From a virus (taxonomy: Duplodnaviria; Caudoviricetes), in the IMG/VR virus record IMGVR_UViG_3300005973_000002: a stretch of DNA of 64,000 nt; one strand, given 5' to 3'. Below, piece by piece: positions 9,211 to 36,383 of the stretch (its first letter is position 1; every line of letters begins with the position of its first letter). The position numbers were made by a program, and so were the translations under genes. Under the pieces are notes generated by a model. That model was not told the DNA's origin. It was given only the letters and a program-made list of their open reading frames with translations, and searched no databases.

Positions 9211-9222
9211 TGTGAGTCAAAT

Positions 9223-9450
9223 ATGAAAAAGACGTCCGTAAAGAATATCCTGAAAAGGCAAGACCCGGCATTCGAACCGCTGTATTGGTCACGACTCCCA
9301 GGTAAATTTGTGGATAAATTCAGTGGTGAACAAATGATGAAGCTACCAATATCTGATCCTCTTCAGTGGAATAGAACATTAGTTGAAGTAGTGAAAGATG
9401 CAACCACTTTGATACACAAGAAATCCCTCAGCTTCCAGCTAATTTCCTAG
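9223..9450 (+). CDS. hypothetical protein
   Basis: 75-aa ORF filling the operon gap. Confidence 0.55.
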   Translation: MKKTSVKNILKRQDPAFEPLYWSRLPGKFVDKFSGEQMMKLPISDPLQWNRTLVEVVKDATTLIHKKSLSFQLIS

Positions 9451-9782
9451 TGTCTAATGGTCTTGGGTTTGTATTATTGGAATCCAGCGTGACTTATCGT
9501 CCCTTCTTGACCGAGGAAGAAGAAATGGATGTCGGAGTAAATTTTTCTGATGCTAAACAGATGGGTGTGCTCAATAGCAAAATAGCGATCTTTAAATCGA
9601 ACTGTATCCCAGAAAACCAAATCTTAGTGGCTTTGGCAGGAAATGGAACAGAAATTGTTACGCTTGAAGATCCTTCTTTGCTGGGAGTGCCCCATATTGA
9701 GGTAAAGACTTCTAAGAAACCACATAAGCAGGTTGGACAAGTTGAACATTGGGGTTTAATTGAGATTCTTGATGTTTTTTGA
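9450..9782 (+). CDS. hypothetical protein
   Basis: 110-aa ORF, GTG start overlapping upstream stop. Confidence 0.55.
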   Translation: MSNGLGFVLLESSVTYRPFLTEEEEMDVGVNFSDAKQMGVLNSKIAIFKSNCIPENQILVALAGNGTEIVTLEDPSLLGVPHIEVKTSKKPHKQVGQVEHWGLIEILDVF

Positions 9783-22064: not shown

Positions 22065-23921
22065 ATGACCAAGTCACTTGAAAAATTGATTGAAGAGCTT
22101 GCAAAGGAAGCGTTGGATGAGGCTAATGCTATTTCTGCTGGTGGTGGTTCTTTACAACCTTCAGGCCAAGTAAGTGGAACCGGGGGAAACCCTCTTGGGA
22201 GAGATATGTCTGATCAACATGAAATAATGTGGTCGGGCGACGAGCCAGAAAAAAAGAAAAGAAGTTTAAAAGAAGAGGTTCTTGAGGAAGACGATCTCGA
22301 CGAGATAAGCGCTATTGGCACTGGAGCTGTTGTAGGTTATACCTTACCTCTTGGTATGAAACCTGACCATGAAACAATGGGGACCAAGAAGAAGAAAAAG
22401 AAAAGACCTAGACGCTGGTATGACGTGCATAAGGAATCACGAAATCGAACGAGGAAAAACGAACAGGTTCGAATTAAAGTATATAATGAAAAAAAAGAAA
22501 AAGTCGCTACAGCAGCAATAAAGTTTGATGGTAAAATTGCATTTTTAGATAGTGTATTCGTTGTCCCTGAGTATCATAAACAAGGGATTGGAAAACAACT
22601 TTACAAGGAAGCCAATGTTGAAGCAAAAAAACAATTTGGAGTTCCTTTAACATCAAGTGATTTCTTGACTCCGCATTCAAAAAAGATGTGGTATCACTTA
22701 TCCAAAGAAGGCGCTGCCAACAAGGTTAGTGAATCTTATCAAATGAAAGAAAGAGAGCTTGATGAGCAAGTTAGGATGCCTGGCAAATACAATTGGGGGC
22801 TGCATCCAATAGAAGGGCCACACTGGTGGAAGCATTTTTCAAAAACAGCAGACAAGATGGTTTTTGCACCTCACGCACTGACTCAAGAAGCATATGAAGA
22901 GCATAATTTGGACATTGAAGACAAAGGTATATGGGGACCAGCATCAATGTTGCGTGGACCTTCCAGACTGGTACTAGCCTACCCTAAAGAAAAAAAGATA
23001 GATATTCTTACAAACCTTAGGGATCCCAGACTAGCTTACCTACTTTCTACGAGTTTGAAATATATTCCAGAGCTTGCCGACTTCAAAGTTTATTTGGCAT
23101 CAAAATCCCCCATGTATGATGAAGACAAATTTTTGGGTAACCCTAAAGAGTTGTTAGCAAAGATTAAAGTAATTTCTGGAAGATCGCCACAATGGTCACG
23201 AGACGATGATAAAGTAGAATACACTGAGTTCAAATTTGAAGTCTTGGAAGATGTAGATGATGTTGATTGGTATCATGCAACAAGCCTTAAAAACTTAGAT
23301 TCAATAAAATCAAAAGGACTATTAACATCAAAGGAGTTTGAACAAGGCACTGGTTGGACACAGCTCAATCTACATTTGCAAGACGCAGTATATTTGACCT
23401 CTGATGAAGACTATGCACTAAGAATTGCTGAAACATTATTGGCTAGAACTGGAGTACCAGGTCTTGTCTTGAAGGTTTCAGGGCAAGCCCTAAAAGATAA
23501 AGAAAAGCTTATTGTTGATGAAGACCGTCTGAGAAATCAATATGACAGTATGTTATCCGCCGGTGAATTATTGGCTGGCATGCCTGATTATTTAAGTTCT
23601 GTGTTGGATTCGAAACTCGAAGCAGTTGGATACAAAGGAAAGATTGATCCTGGGTTCATTTCACCAGCATATGTTGTTGATGTTGAAAGAGATGAAGAGG
23701 GTAATTTTGCGGGCGAAGAAGCTGACATCTACACTTGGCAAGAGTGGAAAGCAAACTCAAGAAAGGTTGATGAAGAGTTTATTGGAAAACGAGGTGGTGT
23801 AAGCTATTTCCAAATTGGGGGTTCTTTGCCTGACCATCTATACAATAGAACCGATGATGGCAAACCAACGAGAGATCCGGGGGTTGTAGGACTTAAAAGA
23901 CCTAAAAAAAAGAAAAAATGA
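22065..23921 (+). CDS. multidomain protein: Gly/Lys repeats + GNAT + unknown + Tpt1/DarT-like ART fold
   Basis: VFVVPEYHKQGIGKQLY (GNAT motif A); WYHATSLKNLDSIKSKGL...VYLT...YKGKIDP (ART-like). Confidence 0.7.
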   Translation: MTKSLEKLIEELAKEALDEANAISAGGGSLQPSGQVSGTGGNPLGRDMSDQHEIMWSGDEPEKKKRSLKEEVLEEDDLDEISAIGTGAVVGYTLPLGMKPDHETMGTKKKKKKRPRRWYDVHKESRNRTRKNEQVRIKVYNEKKEKVATAAIKFDGKIAFLDSVFVVPEYHKQGIGKQLYKEANVEAKKQFGVPLTSSDFLTPHSKKMWYHLSKEGAANKVSESYQMKERELDEQVRMPGKYNWGLHPIEGPHWWKHFSKTADKMVFAPHALTQEAYEEHNLDIEDKGIWGPASMLRGPSRLVLAYPKEKKIDILTNLRDPRLAYLLSTSLKYIPELADFKVYLASKSPMYDEDKFLGNPKELLAKIKVISGRSPQWSRDDDKVEYTEFKFEVLEDVDDVDWYHATSLKNLDSIKSKGLLTSKEFEQGTGWTQLNLHLQDAVYLTSDEDYALRIAETLLARTGVPGLVLKVSGQALKDKEKLIVDEDRLRNQYDSMLSAGELLAGMPDYLSSVLDSKLEAVGYKGKIDPGFISPAYVVDVERDEEGNFAGEEADIYTWQEWKANSRKVDEEFIGKRGGVSYFQIGGSLPDHLYNRTDDGKPTRDPGVVGLKRPKKKKK

Positions 23922-29643: not shown

Positions 29644-30357
29644 ATGGACATGAAATGTATATTTGAAGGAAATGCTAATAAGGGTGGTGTTTATCAAATC
29701 ACAAACAAGATTAATAAAAAGACCTACATTGGCAGTGCCAAATGCTTTAAGAAGAGAGCTTACCAACATCGTTCCGCATTGAGAAATGGGAAACATCACA
29801 ACAAACATTTACAACGTGCTTTTAACAAGTACGGCAAAGAAGCGTTTGAATTTAGAGTGTTACAAGTGACTGAAGGCAATAGAGACAGTAGACTAAAAGA
29901 AGAACAAAAATATCTTAATAATTTTCTTCTAGAAGATAGATGGAATTTGTGTTATAATTTATTAAAACAATCTAATTGTGGAAATGGTTTCATCGAAAAC
30001 ATTGGCAAAATACCTTGGAATAAGGGAAAAACAAATATCTATTCCGAAGAAACCCTACTAAAAATAAGCAATTCTGTAAAAACAAGTGGAAACCCAAATT
30101 GGGGAAAGGCTCGTTCACAAGAAACTAAAGAAAAAATTGCAAAAAAGAATAAAGGTGAGAAAAACGGAATGTATGGTAAAATAGGAAAAAAACATCCACG
30201 AGCGAAGTCATACAATCTTCTATCTCCCGAAGGAAAGAATTTTAAAGGAATTGGTCTTAGAAATTTTTGTAATGAACATGGATTGGACCAAAGATCAATG
30301 TGGAGAGTCATTTCAGGTCAAAGAAATCATTACAAGGGATGGAGAAAGTGTAATTAA
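29644..30357 (+). CDS. free-standing GIY-YIG homing endonuclease with NUMOD3-like repeats
   Basis: GVYQI...YIGSA, H...L, PWNKGK, SQETKEKI, C-terminal HTH. Confidence 0.92.
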   Translation: MDMKCIFEGNANKGGVYQITNKINKKTYIGSAKCFKKRAYQHRSALRNGKHHNKHLQRAFNKYGKEAFEFRVLQVTEGNRDSRLKEEQKYLNNFLLEDRWNLCYNLLKQSNCGNGFIENIGKIPWNKGKTNIYSEETLLKISNSVKTSGNPNWGKARSQETKEKIAKKNKGEKNGMYGKIGKKHPRAKSYNLLSPEGKNFKGIGLRNFCNEHGLDQRSMWRVISGQRNHYKGWRKCN

Positions 30358-31001
30358 TGTATATTTCAATGAAACAATGTATTGAATCAATTGGTCATCC
30401 AATACGTGGAATTATTCACATCGGTGCGCACCGAGGTCAAGAGGCCGAAGACTATGCTAACAATGGCGTGAAAGAAGTTCTTTGGGTCGAGGCCAACAAG
30501 AAAATGATGAAGCACCTTTATGACAAAACATGCAATGTGCCTACCAAGTCACACTACTTTTGCGCAACCCTCTCAGACAGGGATAATGAAACAGTAACTC
30601 TAAATGTTACCAATAACGAGCAATCGACATCCATCCTTGAACTTGGAACTCATGCAACTATGTATCCCCATATCACCATCTCGGAAAGGATACAGGTTCA
30701 AACCAAACGATTTGAAACTCTTTGGAGAGAGAATGTAAATGAAATCGATTTAGACTCTTATGATTTTGTAAATATTGATGTACAAGGTGCGGAATTAAAA
30801 GTTCTAAAAGGCTTTGGTGAAATCTGGAATAGAGTTCCTATTAGAGCAGTATATGCAGAAGTTAATTTTGAACATGTTTACAAAGGTTGTTGCTTGGTTG
30901 AAGACCTCGACGAGTACCTTGGCGAATTTGGATTCCAAAGAGTGCTTACAGCCGCCCCTGAAGGAACATGGGGTGACGCCTTATATTTGCGGAGAGTCTA
31001 A
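30357..31001 (+). CDS. FkbM-family methyltransferase
   Basis: IHIGAHRGQE, WVEAN, IDVQGAELKVLKG, EVN, WGDALY. Confidence 0.92.
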   Translation: MYISMKQCIESIGHPIRGIIHIGAHRGQEAEDYANNGVKEVLWVEANKKMMKHLYDKTCNVPTKSHYFCATLSDRDNETVTLNVTNNEQSTSILELGTHATMYPHITISERIQVQTKRFETLWRENVNEIDLDSYDFVNIDVQGAELKVLKGFGEIWNRVPIRAVYAEVNFEHVYKGCCLVEDLDEYLGEFGFQRVLTAAPEGTWGDALYLRRV

Positions 31002-31155
31002 ATCCTTACCTGATCTTTGCAAAAGATACCGCACTCTTGTCCATTTTAGGAAGCAGGATCACAATCGTTTAGTAGATACCGGTTATGTTTATGCCCCATG
31101 TGTTCCATTGATTGTTACGCCGACGTTCTTGAGCGGTAGCGGAAAGACAAAATGA
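30973..31155 (+). CDS. small ORF resembling the C-terminal segment of a gp23-like major capsid protein
   Basis: DTGYVYAPCVPLIVTPT resembles MCP G(Y/A)VYAPYVPL..TPT; possible GTG start with AAGGA SD. Confidence 0.55.
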   Translation: MTPYICGESKSLPDLCKRYRTLVHFRKQDHNRLVDTGYVYAPCVPLIVTPTFLSGSGKTK

Positions 31156-31233: not shown

Positions 31234-32130
31234 ATGTCCGAACAAGAAACAATGACTGAAGAACAGCAAAGAGAGTTGCGAAATTCAATTTTCGCCGCTA
31301 AGAAAGCAGCTGAAGGTGCGCAAGGAGCGACTGAAGTATCGAGAGAGCAATACGCAAAGCAAGAGCTTGGGCTTGATATTCCGGTTGATGCAGTTCCACT
31401 TCCATCCGCTGGACAGATTTATCCAGCAGGTCACGCATTGCATGACGCCAAGAGAGTTGAATTTAGAGCAATGACAGCTCGTGAAGAGGATATTCTCATG
31501 AGCCGTGCATATATCAAGCGTGGTACGGTTATTACCGAACTTATCAAATCATGTTTAATCAACCGAAACGTAGATGTAAACTCAATGATTTCTGGTGATC
31601 GCAATGCATTGATGATTGCCATTCGTATTTCCGGCTATGGTGCAAACTACCAACCACAGTACACTTGCCCTAATTGTGAAACCATGAATGAACTCAATAT
31701 CAATCTTGCCGAGCTTCCAATTAAGCCTTTATCATTACAGCCAGCAGAAGCTTTTACTAACCTATTTCGTTTCAAACTTCCTAAAACCGGGAAAACCGTT
31801 GGTTTTCGTTTTCTAACGGGCGAAGAGGAAGAAAAACTTCTTAAAGCCATGGAAGTAAAAAAGAAAAAAGGAATTCAAAACGACAACATCGTAACCACTC
31901 GACTTCTTTCGTCGATTGTTGAAATTGACGGGGTAACTGATAGAAACCAAATCTCTAAATTTGTTCAGTATATGCCGGCACTCGATTCACTTTCTTTAAG
32001 GAAGCATATTGACGACAATGAACCTGGCGTTAATATGACTGTTGAATTCGTTTGTCAAAATTGTGACCATGTGGCAGACATCACGCTGCCCATGGGTCCA
32101 TCGTTTTTTTGGCCTAATGCCCGAACATAG
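31234..32130 (+). CDS. T4 gp26-like baseplate hub / tail assembly chaperone
   Basis: VPLPS.G..YP, MTAREEDIL, GDRNALM.AIR..GYG, two CxxC, ends FFWP. Confidence 0.85.
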   Translation: MSEQETMTEEQQRELRNSIFAAKKAAEGAQGATEVSREQYAKQELGLDIPVDAVPLPSAGQIYPAGHALHDAKRVEFRAMTAREEDILMSRAYIKRGTVITELIKSCLINRNVDVNSMISGDRNALMIAIRISGYGANYQPQYTCPNCETMNELNINLAELPIKPLSLQPAEAFTNLFRFKLPKTGKTVGFRFLTGEEEEKLLKAMEVKKKKGIQNDNIVTTRLLSSIVEIDGVTDRNQISKFVQYMPALDSLSLRKHIDDNEPGVNMTVEFVCQNCDHVADITLPMGPSFFWPNART

Positions 32131-32395
32131 AGAAGCGGTTCTACTTGAACCATTTTTCTTGCTCGGGTACTACTTCGGCATGGATTGGGACACTTATTAT
32201 TATAAGTTTCCAATCAGTTACAAACGATGGCTCATTGAGCGAATACAAAGAGAGATACAAGAAGCCGCAAAAGCAAATGAACAAGGTGGCTCGCAAGTAC
32301 CGTCACGAGGCGCACATCATAATACTCCAGACATGAGAGCGCTGTCTGGCAAACATAGAGCCCAAACTCCCGCAAAGTTGAGACGGTTTACGTAG
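32117..32395 (+). CDS. chaperone partner ORF, possibly reached by frameshift
   Basis: EPFFLLGYYFG..W..YY.FPI.Y.RWL; frame is open from upstream of the T7 run at 32104. Confidence 0.7.
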   Translation: MPEHREAVLLEPFFLLGYYFGMDWDTYYYKFPISYKRWLIERIQREIQEAAKANEQGGSQVPSRGAHHNTPDMRALSGKHRAQTPAKLRRFT

Positions 32396-32420
32396 CTCAA
32401 GGATATCCATCCTATTCAAG

Positions 32421-32452
32421 AAAGCCTATAGTATGTAACTATAGGCTTTTTT
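32421..32452 (+). terminator. intrinsic terminator
   Basis: perfect 11-bp stem AAAGCCTATAG/CTATAGGCTTT plus T tail. Confidence 0.9.
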
Positions 32453-32653
32453 ATGAGCAAAACACTTTCAAATTTAGTAAAGAAATACCGACGGGCGAAG
32501 ATTGGAAACAAGTTTCAGTTCCCGCATGTTAGAAAGGTTAGCCCAACACTGATATCACAGCAGGTTGTATCAGTCCAACCAATGAGTCTTCCTTCTGGTT
32601 TGCTGTTCTACTTAGACTACTCCTATACAAGTGGAAGTAATAAACAGGAATGA
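32453..32653 (+). CDS. 66-aa ORF resembling an internal segment of a gp23-like major capsid protein
   Basis: FPHVRKV...LI...VVSVQPMSLPSGLLFYLDY matches the MCP VQPMxxPxGxxFxL motif. Confidence 0.75.
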   Translation: MSKTLSNLVKKYRRAKIGNKFQFPHVRKVSPTLISQQVVSVQPMSLPSGLLFYLDYSYTSGSNKQE

Positions 32654-32689: not shown

Positions 32690-33045
32690 ATGCCAGATAA
32701 TCAAAACAAAAGCCCGGATGTTGTCGGTAAAGTTGGAGATTTTATAAAAACTTGGCTTCCAATAGTAATCACCATTGGTGGTCTTGTCACAGGGTATTTT
32801 GTTTTAAGGCTGAGACAAAGCACCAATTTGAACTTCAAAGAGTAGAAGTTACATCTCTAAGAAATGAGCTATCTTCCCTTAGAAATCAAATTGAAACCGA
32901 TAGAAGAGAATGGCAACGTGGTGTTGAGGCCGAATTGAGGACGCTTCGTGAACAATCCATTCGTAGAGATTTTAGAATTCAATCACTTGAAAACCAACGA
33001 AGTGGAGGAAACTCTAATCCGAATGGTTTCACTCCAATAAATTAA
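32690..33045 (+). pseudogene. TM + coiled-coil membrane protein split by a 1-nt frameshift (holin/spanin-like?)
   Basis: ATG 32690 ORF has TM WLPIVITIGGLVTGYFVL and stops at 32845; -1 frame continues KAETKHQFELQRVE... to 33045. Confidence 0.65.
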
Positions 33046-34382: not shown

Positions 34383-36383
34383 ATGGCTAAGAAATGGAAT
34401 TTTGATCCTTTTAAAGGCTACAAAGGAAATCTTGATTGGTTGGAGAAGCGAACCATTTTCGTAACTGTGCATGGATCACAAGCTTATGGCACCTCCATGC
34501 CTGAATCTGACATTGATGTCAAAGGCTTGGCTATTCCCCCCAAGGAATATTTCCATGGTTTTGTAAAGAATTTTGAGCAAGCAGAAGGCAAGGAACCATA
34601 TGATATGGTTATTTATGGTCTTCGTAAGTTCATGAAGCTTGCTTCGAATTGCAACCCAAACATCATTGAAGTTTTATTTACCGACCCAGATGATTGGGTT
34701 GTTGACACCGTTATTTTTCGAAAACTTTGGGAGCATCGTGATCTTTTTTTAAGCAAAAAGGCTAGATTCACGTTTAGTGGATATGCAAATCAGCAGCTAA
34801 AACGAATCAAGGGTCACAAGCGTTGGCTTTTGGAGCCGCCTACACATAAGCCGACCCGAGAAGAATTTGGTCTTCCTGTTGAACGTAAGATGAGTCAGTC
34901 AGAAATCGGGGCTACGCAAAAATTGGTTGACGATGGTGCCCCATTGGCTGAAGACATTATGAGACTCTTTCACAAAGAACAGAAGTATTATAGTGCAAGG
35001 CGTGAATGGGAACAATACCAAAAGTGGAAGCGCACTCGTAACGAAAAGCGAGCAAAGCTTGAAGCTGATTTTGGTTATGATTGTTATTTGGATGACACAG
35101 AATTTTTGACGGAACGTGGTTGGCTGCCTTACGAGCAAATCACCAAAGCAGATAAGCTGGCAACGGTTCGTCAAAAAACAGGGGAACTGGAGTTCCAGAA
35201 GTTTAGCGAACGAGTCCGAAAGCCTTATAGTGGAGAAATTCTTCACTTCGAAACCCAAGATAGTCTGTGCTCTGTAACTCCCAATCACAGAATGCTGGTG
35301 TCTCCCATGTGCCGCAGCAGAAAAAACGGGTTTTCAACAAGGTATCGGCAGCAGACTGCCAAGTGGCAAATCAAAAGAGCAGATGAGCTTCTCAATGAGT
35401 ATAAAAGCCATTATCATATTCGGTTGACGGCACATCAAACCAAAGACAACACAGAAATTTCTGAAAACCTTCTTTGGATCGTGGGTACCTATGTTAGTGA
35501 AGGTTGTGTTGGGAAACGACTCAAGAACGGCGCACCATCTGTCTTGAGGTTCTCGCAAAAGGAATCCAATAGGCAGCAGGTGTTTTTGGACTCCTTGTGT
35601 GAGAGCACCGAAATGCGGAAAATCACCCATTTTCGTGAAGACAAGGGGTATAATGAACTGATTTATACCTTGGCTGACCGCAGTTTAGCCAAACAGGTTG
35701 TTGAATGGTGCGGCGAATATTCCAGGAACAAACGACTGCCACCGTGGATCACCACCCTGTCAAGTCAACAAGCAAATAGCTTGTTGAATGTCATGATTGC
35801 TGGGGACGGCACAGAGCGTAAATATAGCTCCATTTACTACACAATTTCGCAAGCTCTGGCTAATGATGTCCAGACACTTGGGGTCATTGCGGGAAGGCCC
35901 ACTAAAATTTGGGGGCCTTACGAGGACGGCATGTATCAGGTATATCTTGGCGATCCAGAGGCAACAGATTCTCTTGTGGCTACCAAATACGGTCATGTTA
36001 CTAGTGAAGAAGTTGTTGATCGCCACATTGTTTGCTTTACTGTACCTAATGAGATTTTGATCACACGTCGGAAGGGTAAGCTGGCAATTCAGGGCAACAC
36101 CAAACATGCTGGTCATCTAGTTCGTCTTATGCGAATGTGTCGAGAAATTCTTAGTGAAGGCAAGGTTTACGTTCGACGACCGGATGCTGATGAACTCATG
36201 GCTATTCGTAAGGGAGCATGGACTTATGATGAGCTAATTGAATGGGCCGACAAACAAGATAAAGAAATGCAAAAACTATACGAGACTTCTCCACTTCCTG
36301 AAAAGCCTCAAGTAGAAAAAATTGACAAGGTTTGCCAAATGCTTGTAGAAGAGGCTTTACGGCACGAGTCACTTCGGTTCTAA
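34383..36383 (+). CDS. Pol-beta-superfamily nucleotidyltransferase (RlaP/PF10127-like) with intein
   Basis: HGSQAYG...ESDIDVKG, NPNIIEVL, GYD|TKHA.HLVRL. Confidence 0.9.
   Translation: MAKKWNFDPFKGYKGNLDWLEKRTIFVTVHGSQAYGTSMPESDIDVKGLAIPPKEYFHGFVKNFEQAEGKEPYDMVIYGLRKFMKLASNCNPNIIEVLFTDPDDWVVDTVIFRKLWEHRDLFLSKKARFTFSGYANQQLKRIKGHKRWLLEPPTHKPTREEFGLPVERKMSQSEIGATQKLVDDGAPLAEDIMRLFHKEQKYYSARREWEQYQKWKRTRNEKRAKLEADFGYDCYLDDTEFLTERGWLPYEQITKADKLATVRQKTGELEFQKFSERVRKPYSGEILHFETQDSLCSVTPNHRMLVSPMCRSRKNGFSTRYRQQTAKWQIKRADELLNEYKSHYHIRLTAHQTKDNTEISENLLWIVGTYVSEGCVGKRLKNGAPSVLRFSQKESNRQQVFLDSLCESTEMRKITHFREDKGYNELIYTLADRSLAKQVVEWCGEYSRNKRLPPWITTLSSQQANSLLNVMIAGDGTERKYSSIYYTISQALANDVQTLGVIAGRPTKIWGPYEDGMYQVYLGDPEATDSLVATKYGHVTSEEVVDRHIVCFTVPNEILITRRKGKLAIQGNTKHAGHLVRLMRMCREILSEGKVYVRRPDADELMAIRKGAWTYDELIEWADKQDKEMQKLYETSPLPEKPQVEKIDKVCQMLVEEALRHESLRF
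35082..36098 (+). mobile_element. LAGLIDADG intein (339 aa) in nucleotidyltransferase
   Basis: GYD|CYLDDTEFLTERGW, VTPNHRM block B, VGTYVSEG and MIAGDG, CFTVPN...IQGN|T. Confidence 0.93.

Follow-up and report, generated by a model that had tools for sequence, protein, structure and literature searches.

Mini-1 is a real, selected gene that encodes a 66-residue protein with a segment of a gp23-type major capsid protein (MCP) at its C-terminal end. It is located in a stretch of 64,000 nucleotides of the virus record IMGVR_UViG_3300005973_000002, referred to here as the window (Table 1). The protein is a derivative of the gp23 family and is not a capsid protein. Its capsid-derived module is a selected, portable unit with fixed boundaries. 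The mini family to which it belongs seems to be undescribed: literature searches on fragments, decoys, and mimics of capsids gave nothing for phages and no paper describing the family, and in the collections searched its members appear unannotated, being either nameless or labeled "hypothetical protein". New here are the pairing of mini-1 with a second gene, mini-2, around genes for baseplate hub proteins, with a helix shared by the two products, the measurements of selection, a diagnostic proline, and tandem arrays of carriers.

Table 1 Features of the window and of two contigs with tandem arrays of mini-genes.
Feature	Positions	Strand	Description
MCP-like ORF pair	9211–9779	+	Between recA and dut; clade MCP HMM states 438–496 (E 1e-8) and 500–569 (E 1e-7)
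618-residue protein	22065–23921	+	Residues 9–43 weakly match the MCP propeptide region (states 46–80, E 0.005)
GIY-YIG-type endonuclease ORF	29644–30357	+	Assigned by sequence motifs; between a 290-residue gene and the methyltransferase gene
mini-2	30973–31155	+	ORF of ~60 residues, GTG start; overlaps the 3′ end of the methyltransferase gene
Baseplate hub protein (T4_baseplate)	31234–32130	+	PF12322 E 1.5e-23, phrog_150 E 9e-28; between mini-2 and mini-1
92-residue ORF	32117–32395	+	In another frame, overlapping the end of the hub gene
Hairpin	32417–32452	+	Stem 32423–32447, A-tract before, T-run after; ends at the mini-1 ATG
mini-1	32453–32653	+	Intact ORF of 66 residues, ATG start, TGA stop
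mini-1 residues 1–15			Basic helix with the motif L-V-K-K-Y-R-R
MCP-derived module of mini-1	32498–32638	+	Codons 16–62; aligned by hhalign to MCP columns 75–121
mini-1 residues 63–66			Short polar tail
Gene 3′ of mini-1	32690–33045	+	Hydrophobic N-terminal helix and coiled coil; 117–120 residues in L084 and L001, intact in G001
666-residue ORF	34383–36383	+	Syntenic gene in L087 and L091 encodes a 326–331-residue RlaP family protein
L088 array	8775–10330 of contig L088		Five tandem genes sharing the group-B carrier
L089 array	9699–10408 of contig L089		Tandem small genes with a shared N-terminal carrier

Homology of mini-1 to the major capsid protein

The open reading frame of mini-1 is intact, as the original prediction stated, and the further claim that it holds a segment of the MCP is borne out by Pfam, PHROG, a clade-specific hidden Markov model (HMM), and hhalign. 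The Pfam family Gp23 (PF07068) aligns residues 19–62 with positions 5–48 of its 376-position profile (E 3e-9) at a score of 37.2 bits, which is above the curated gathering cut-off of 24.4, and PHROG 138 (major head protein) also matches, with an E value of 1e-7. In a six-frame scan of the window with an HMM built from 63 full-length MCPs of the same clade, the sequences of which were taken from IMG/VR, mini-1 corresponds to states 84–127 (E 1.3e-18). The alignment of the mini family with MCP N-termini by hhalign covers residues 16–62 with an E value of 1.4e-32. The homology of mini-1 to gp23-type MCPs is far beyond chance, and the segment is among the most conserved ones of gp23. Within the window, neither a full-length MCP gene nor a second copy of the mini-1 motif was found.

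The gp23-type MCPs (PF07068) have the HK97 fold (5VF3, 6UZC, 7VS5), which in its complete form includes a P-domain with a spine helix, an A-domain, and C-terminal strands, and is organized into capsomers. Mini-1 is homologous to these proteins over 47 residues and has the same invariant residues. However, with only ~44 of the 376 profile positions it lacks the A-domain, the spine helix, and the C-terminal strands, and cannot form a capsomer. The best biologically meaningful solved structure is that of T4 gp23, residues 98–131 of which are equivalent to residues 25–58 of mini-1. In T4 heads, residues 66–105 of gp23 belong to an N-terminal arm, which is flexible before expansion and forms inter-subunit contacts after it, and residues 132–160 belong to the first linker of the insertion domain (PMC9546572). 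Mini-1 therefore represents the end of the N-arm and the first strands of the P-domain. The AF2 model of mini-1 alone has a helix at residues 2–16 and is without a confident fold (pLDDT 65, pTM 0.21).

The N-terminus of mini-1 had been described as basic and unrelated to the MCP. The first part of this description holds, as the net charge is about +8 by our own count for the whole protein. The unrelatedness is less plain: a likeness of the N-terminal helix to the propeptide helix of the MCP is suggestive by eye, and it is unsupported by hhalign. The basic helix is clearly common to mini-1 and the neighboring mini-2. A capsid-targeting tag of the T4 type with an L/I-x-E site is not present in mini-1, the sole glutamate of which is the last residue. 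The small prohead-core proteins gp67 and gp68 of T4 were considered as relatives of mini-1, and the similarity is absent.

Conservation and selection of mini-1

The exact protein sequence of mini-1 is present on five contigs, the longest of which, at 461,086 bp, confirms the earlier assignment to a jumbo phage, which is related to T4. Orthologues of 67, 67, and 68 residues are encoded by the syntenic relatives L084 (6.9 kb), L001 (1 kb), and G001 (a 40-kb IMG/VR record). The genome of G001 is of a similar giant size, because CheckV puts its 40 kb at 9% complete. The start, stop, and length (66–68 residues) of the gene are kept in the four genomes. A check for purifying selection, suggested with the original prediction, was made with the Nei–Gojobori method on the six pairs of the four genes: pS is 0.75–0.86, which is saturated, and pN is 0.21–0.31, with pN/pS of 0.24–0.39, uncorrected and with pS saturated. 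The mini-1 proteins of the window, L001, and L084 are 61–67% identical to each other, and the proteins flanking mini-1 are 70–90% identical between the relatives.

The original prediction had allowed for a relic of recombination or recent debris of the MCP gene, which can be rejected. The 114-nucleotide core of mini-1 has at most 67% DNA identity to any of the MCP genes from other genomes that were compared, and at third codon positions the agreement is near random. No MCP from the 461,086-bp contig was among the 120 best longer homologues of mini-1, and a search of IMG/VR and JGI contigs for an exact 45-mer of mini-1 gave no match. Recent debris is excluded because the gene is old, with its frame kept and its synonymous sites saturated. 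Mini-1 does not qualify as a pseudogene, given the constraint on its frame, its kept ends, and its DNA divergence from the MCP genes compared.

It is very improbable that mini-1 is a neutral remnant of an older partial duplication of the MCP gene that merely stays open. There is a precedent in T4, in which the small ORFs alt.-1 and alt.-2 are kept and have been annotated as an ancient duplication of part of alt. Like mini-1, they are small ORFs derived from a part of a larger phage gene. However, they adjoin the gene from which they derive, and a family has not been reported for them, whereas mini-1 lies far from any MCP gene of the window, is conserved, and has a module that occurs on several carriers. 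The window is rich in mobile endonuclease genes, and mini-1 is without a clear ribosome-binding site and directly follows a putative terminator, as might be expected of a remnant. By contrast, the conservation of its frame and both ends across synonymous saturation, the recurrence of the module in dozens of clusters (50% identity) with unrelated carriers, and a 67-member cluster of proteins of ~67 residues in the ESM Atlas, the members of which carry PF07068, argue for a functional gene. The selection data largely exclude the neutral relic.

The window stretch is without a match to the INPHARED phages in a megablast search. A tblastn search of INPHARED with mini-1 gave matches in 1989 records at 1990 places; among the matches listed, the annotated places are MCP genes, save one chance-level match, and no mini was seen in a cultured phage. 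In GTDB genome contigs only four loci match, at least three of which are full-length or end-cut MCP genes, and these matches give no clue to the host. The baseplate hub protein of the window shares ~32% identity with its counterparts in Flavobacterium phage immuto, a Microcystis phage, and an uncultured 484-kb phage. The stretch is present in DNA runs labeled hypersaline lake metagenome, most of which are flagged as potential sources of it, and no RNA runs carrying it are listed.

The capsid module on different carriers

Similar mini-ORFs, for which a search had been proposed with the original prediction, form a large family, the members of which have different carriers. When 1.84 billion representatives were searched exhaustively with a profile, 2165 matches were obtained, many of which are MCPs or pieces of MCPs cut by contig ends. 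Among the best 150 of the 2165 matches, ~45 clusters are small proteins that start with methionine and stop soon after the motif. Eleven mini-ORFs with an in-frame stop are located inside contigs (L001, L002, L084–L089, L091, L101, and L102). The family comprises dozens of proteins of 63–145 residues, which have the same module of ~45 residues at the C-terminal end. From the end of the module to the C-terminus there are between a few and ~70 residues, which usually comprise G-S-G-S and then a short polar tail. Mini-1 has the layout that defines the family, with an N-terminal carrier, a C-terminal MCP segment, and a short polar tail.

The carriers differ between groups of the family. In group A, which includes mini-1, the carrier is a basic helix with the pattern hydrophobic-x-x-L-hydrophobic-x-x-Y-K/R. 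Group B has an N-terminal domain of ~60 residues, which is modeled as all-beta, group C has a different N-terminal domain, and a few members have cysteine-rich N-termini. Enzyme-sized cargo was not seen on the module in the family. In the AF2 model of a group-B member, the all-beta carrier has a pLDDT of 90–97 and the MCP tail one of about 50. A Foldseek search of the PDB with the group-B carrier gave a best E value of 0.6 and no fold match.

In the 46 minis compared, the residues Q, P, and M of the Q-P-M motif and a second P are invariant, as they are in MCPs, and G, F, and D are nearly so. The minis keep these residues of the MCP in the absence of the rest of the fold; therefore, the constraint comes from a partner. 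A diagnostic difference is found at the position 11 residues before the Q of Q-P-M. Of the 46 minis, 28 have P and 10 have S there, across carriers, whereas each of the 175 clade MCPs has A or G. In T4 gp23 the position is occupied by P. Because the position separates the two sets, the minis seem to follow an evolutionary path of their own and not to have been repeatedly recopied from capsid genes.

Mini-2 and other displayed segments of the capsid protein

The mini-2 protein begins with a basic helix with the motif L-C-K-R-Y-R, after which come a copy of the C-terminal strand of the MCP (G-Y-V-Y-A-P-C-V-P-L) and a short tail. The clade MCP HMM matches it with states 571–590, which represent the conserved C-terminal strand of the MCP (E 1e-6), and a Pfam scan gave no match. 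Orthologues of mini-2 are present in L084 (E 4e-10), where neither an ATG nor a GTG start was seen, in L087 (E 4e-9; 65 residues with an ATG start), and in G001 (E 4e-10). The mini-1 and mini-2 of G001 contain an identical hexapeptide, L-V-K-T-Y-R. The order mini-2, one or more hub genes, and mini-1 is found in the window, L084, L087, and G001. The order in L091 is hub, hub, and mini-1, and the contig end cuts the upstream side. A prediction of a complex of mini-1 with mini-2 had a score of 0.00 in a calculation run without controls, which is evidence neither for nor against such a complex.

A search with the alignment of mini-2 identified more small proteins with the C-terminal strand, the carriers of which include a domain of the group-C type and twin-arginine-type leaders. 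The leaders are found in P0335, P0338, and P0344, where R-R-x-F-L-R and a hydrophobic stretch are joined to the motif of the MCP C-terminal strand. Judging from its sequence, such a leader would place the MCP segment at or beyond the membrane.

The five genes of the L088 array differ in their tails. One tail corresponds to MCP states 571–624 and another to states 85–126, a third is MCP-like by eye only, the fourth has no identity assigned, and the fifth gene is almost tail-less. In the L089 array, a gene with states 370–409 (PHROG 138, E 6e-6) adjoins a gene with states 83–144. In both contigs, a phage Cpn60 gene lies 7–9 kb from the array, and a vault-shoulder-like gene is nearby. We favor a role that depends on the capsid fold, because several segments of the MCP ride on the same carriers, two of them in one locus.

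The display of several well-conserved MCP segments, which are targets that a sensor cannot easily lose, could also serve in conflicts. Minis may show epitopes of the MCP that occupy host sensors without activating them, or they may poison the head assembly of related rival phages. The genes of groups B and C are placed among runs of small genes of no assigned function, outside structural modules, and the systematic difference of P or S from A or G at the diagnostic position indicates an evolutionary track of their own, both of which fit such a role. Defenses that read capsid proteins are established and include Lit with Gol, CapRel, and a TIR system. Chaperone-based TAC systems fire when an unfolded structural protein titrates the chaperone (preprint). 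However, the known sensors of this kind respond when they bind the segment or unfolded protein, so that a mini in free form would be expected to set them off. Since the module matches the clade consensus, a dominant-negative fragment would act on the MCP of its own phage, and the apparent bias towards conserved segments may be a detection bias of the HMM. We regard a role of the minis as conflict mimics as rather unlikely. The use as a decoy, which had been suggested with the original prediction, is not singled out by any result here, and for Lit-type sensors a free copy should trigger the response, not blunt it.

It is similarly doubtful that the minis of giant T4-related phages constitute a toolkit, with each small protein displaying one unfolded conserved piece of the MCP on a carrier, which would act as mimics of nascent capsid protein against EF-Tu/Lit-like, chaperone-based, or CapRel-like sensors, or against rival phages. 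If such a toolkit existed, it would constitute a class of structural-protein mimicry for which no description was found in phages.

Locus and expression signals

Two hub paralogues are present in L087 and L091, the second of which has a C-terminal extension of ~100 residues, and the window and L084 have one hub gene and the 92-residue ORF. The product of this ORF matches residues ~250–350 of the second hub protein of L087 and L091, which constitute the extension, with a phmmer E value of 1e-45. Mini-1 follows the second hub gene by 36 nucleotides in L087 and by 1 nucleotide in L091; it is therefore probably co-transcribed with structural genes in these two contigs.

The hairpin upstream of mini-1 has a folding energy of −18.8 kcal/mol as RNA, with a z score of −4.9, and is unique in the window. 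Its extended stem pairs with the UG of the mini-1 start codon. All four genomes keep the stem, with a single G-U change in L001, and the loops differ. The hairpin resembles an intrinsic terminator that would serve the hub operon. No clear Shine–Dalgarno sequence precedes mini-1, and the next gene has GGAG. Inspection by eye identified a conserved TATAGT inside the hairpin and a conserved TAT(T/C)CA ~17 nucleotides upstream, which together could form a promoter. No enrichment of the T4-type late promoter TATAAATA was found in the window, and none occurs near mini-1.

The gene 3′ of mini-1 is split into two frames in the window, where one C is missing after a T-run between positions 32805 and 32806. 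The break may be a genuine frameshift or result from an error in the assembly. The GIY-YIG-type endonuclease ORF upstream of mini-2 is an insertion of ~800 bp in the window, because the two genes that flank it are adjacent in L084.

Possible binding partners of the module

Of the functions considered, the module most likely docks onto the assembling MCP by native-like strand pairing, which is a best guess and is put forward tentatively. Mini-1 would present the end of the MCP N-arm and the first strands of the P-domain in trans, in an unfolded state and behind a short basic helix. The module may be a portable docking peptide that folds on binding, and it would pair with the elements of the MCP that this segment contacts inside the capsid protein, namely P-domain strands of a subunit that is assembling or not yet matured. 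Docking would put the small carrier on proheads or cap the edges of subunits, so that the mini-1 protein may be a minor assembly factor or an accessory of a very large head. Mini-2, which combines this type of helix with the C-terminal strand of the MCP, would act likewise on the neighboring part of the P-domain.

Docking is consistent with the selection on mini-1 and the conservation of its start, stop, and length, and with a module that is portable, has fixed boundaries, and is found on several kinds of carriers. A role tied to the MCP fold explains why several segments are displayed, which a role of the Gol stretch alone does not, and it accounts for the MCP-invariant residues that stay invariant in proteins lacking the rest of the fold. 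The confident model of the group-B carrier with its low-confidence tail, and the lack of a confident fold of mini-1, fit a peptide that folds on its partner. The probable transcript shared with structural genes in L087 and L091 fits as well, as does the change of gp23 residues 66–105 from a flexible segment to one with inter-subunit contacts (PMC9546572). However, the strand is already present in every MCP subunit and there is no obvious free site. The position of groups B and C in small-gene runs, and not in structural modules, speaks against docking, and the twin-arginine-type leaders of some members would put the module outside the cytoplasm. The module has not been seen with enzyme-sized cargo. 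In the window, mini-1 lies after a strong hairpin, with its start codon partly paired and without a clear ribosome-binding site. Minis are also absent from the parts present of four other large-phage records of the clade in IMG/VR and from one MAG, in which only the MCP itself was found.

Portable peptides that address proteins to capsids include the cargo-loading peptides of encapsulins and satellite proteins that copy the C-terminus of a scaffold. The capsid-targeting sequence on the internal proteins of T4 is similar to the mini module in being a short transferable peptide on unrelated carriers, and the module, which derives from a head protein, apparently acts by binding. The tag of T4, by contrast, consists of ~10 N-terminal residues that are cleaved off at an L/I-x-E site, whereas the mini module is C-terminal, ~45 residues long, and attached to carriers that are tiny and not enzymes.

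Residues 25–58 of mini-1, which align with gp23 98–131, overlap the Gol region of T4 gp23, which we take to be residues 93–122. Gol is the classic example of the recognition of a capsid segment in trans, as it binds EF-Tu and triggers Lit. To our knowledge, the reason why it is read in trans has never been settled. The Gol region comprises 29 residues, works as a short peptide, binds domains II and III of EF-Tu, and licenses Lit (PMC3014915). Bingham and colleagues proposed that all gp23 proteins of the T4 type bind the EF-Tu of their hosts (reviewed in PMC3014915). In addition, the N-terminus of T4 gp23 sends fusion proteins to GroEL (PMC3012670). The Gol region, which activates the e14 Lit protease through EF-Tu, and mini-1 share the same stretch of the MCP, which in Gol is active outside the folded protein. 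However, Gol is an experimentally defined part of gp23, whereas mini-1 is a gene in its own right, which is under selection and encodes a carrier helix as well; an effect of mini-1 on EF-Tu or Lit would follow only by analogy.

The unfolded module could accordingly be a free signal of the nascent capsid that binds EF-Tu, a GroEL-type chaperonin, or both, by which the phage would tune translation or reserve folding capacity for its head protein. Binding of EF-Tu or of a chaperonin is the only activity documented in trans for this stretch, and it fits mini-1 well. A universal partner would explain the invariant residues in the absence of the MCP fold; the low confidence of the module when modeled alone and the proximity of the group-B arrays of L088 and L089 to the Cpn60 gene also fit. 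The sister minis with the C-terminal strand and with states 370–409 would, however, be left unexplained, and generic binding to a chaperone would not require the invariant Q-P-M, P, G, and D. Furthermore, hosts with a Lit-type protease would be expected to respond to a free Gol-like peptide by suicide. A signal of this kind is possible, and we consider it improbable on balance. To something beyond the readings discussed here we assign about a quarter of our expectation.

Both docking onto the MCP and the alternatives concern a Gol-equivalent stretch that exists in huge phages, together with other MCP segments, as separate selected genes on several carriers. The minis are thus ready-made reagents for asking what binds these segments, be it the MCP, EF-Tu, chaperonins, or immune sensors. 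Any partner found would bear on the building of very large heads or on the handling of capsid sensing.

Other features of the window

The two overlapping frames of the MCP-like ORF pair between recA and dut look like one frameshifted gene of ~186 residues. ORFs located beside the MCP genes in L009 and L018 share this region; therefore, it may be a domain shared with another head protein. The 618-residue protein has a weak match to the propeptide region of the MCP near its N-terminus (Table 1). The 666-residue ORF downstream of mini-1 has ~335 extra residues in its middle relative to the RlaP family proteins encoded at the syntenic position in L087 and L091, and by their length and sequence these residues look like an intein.
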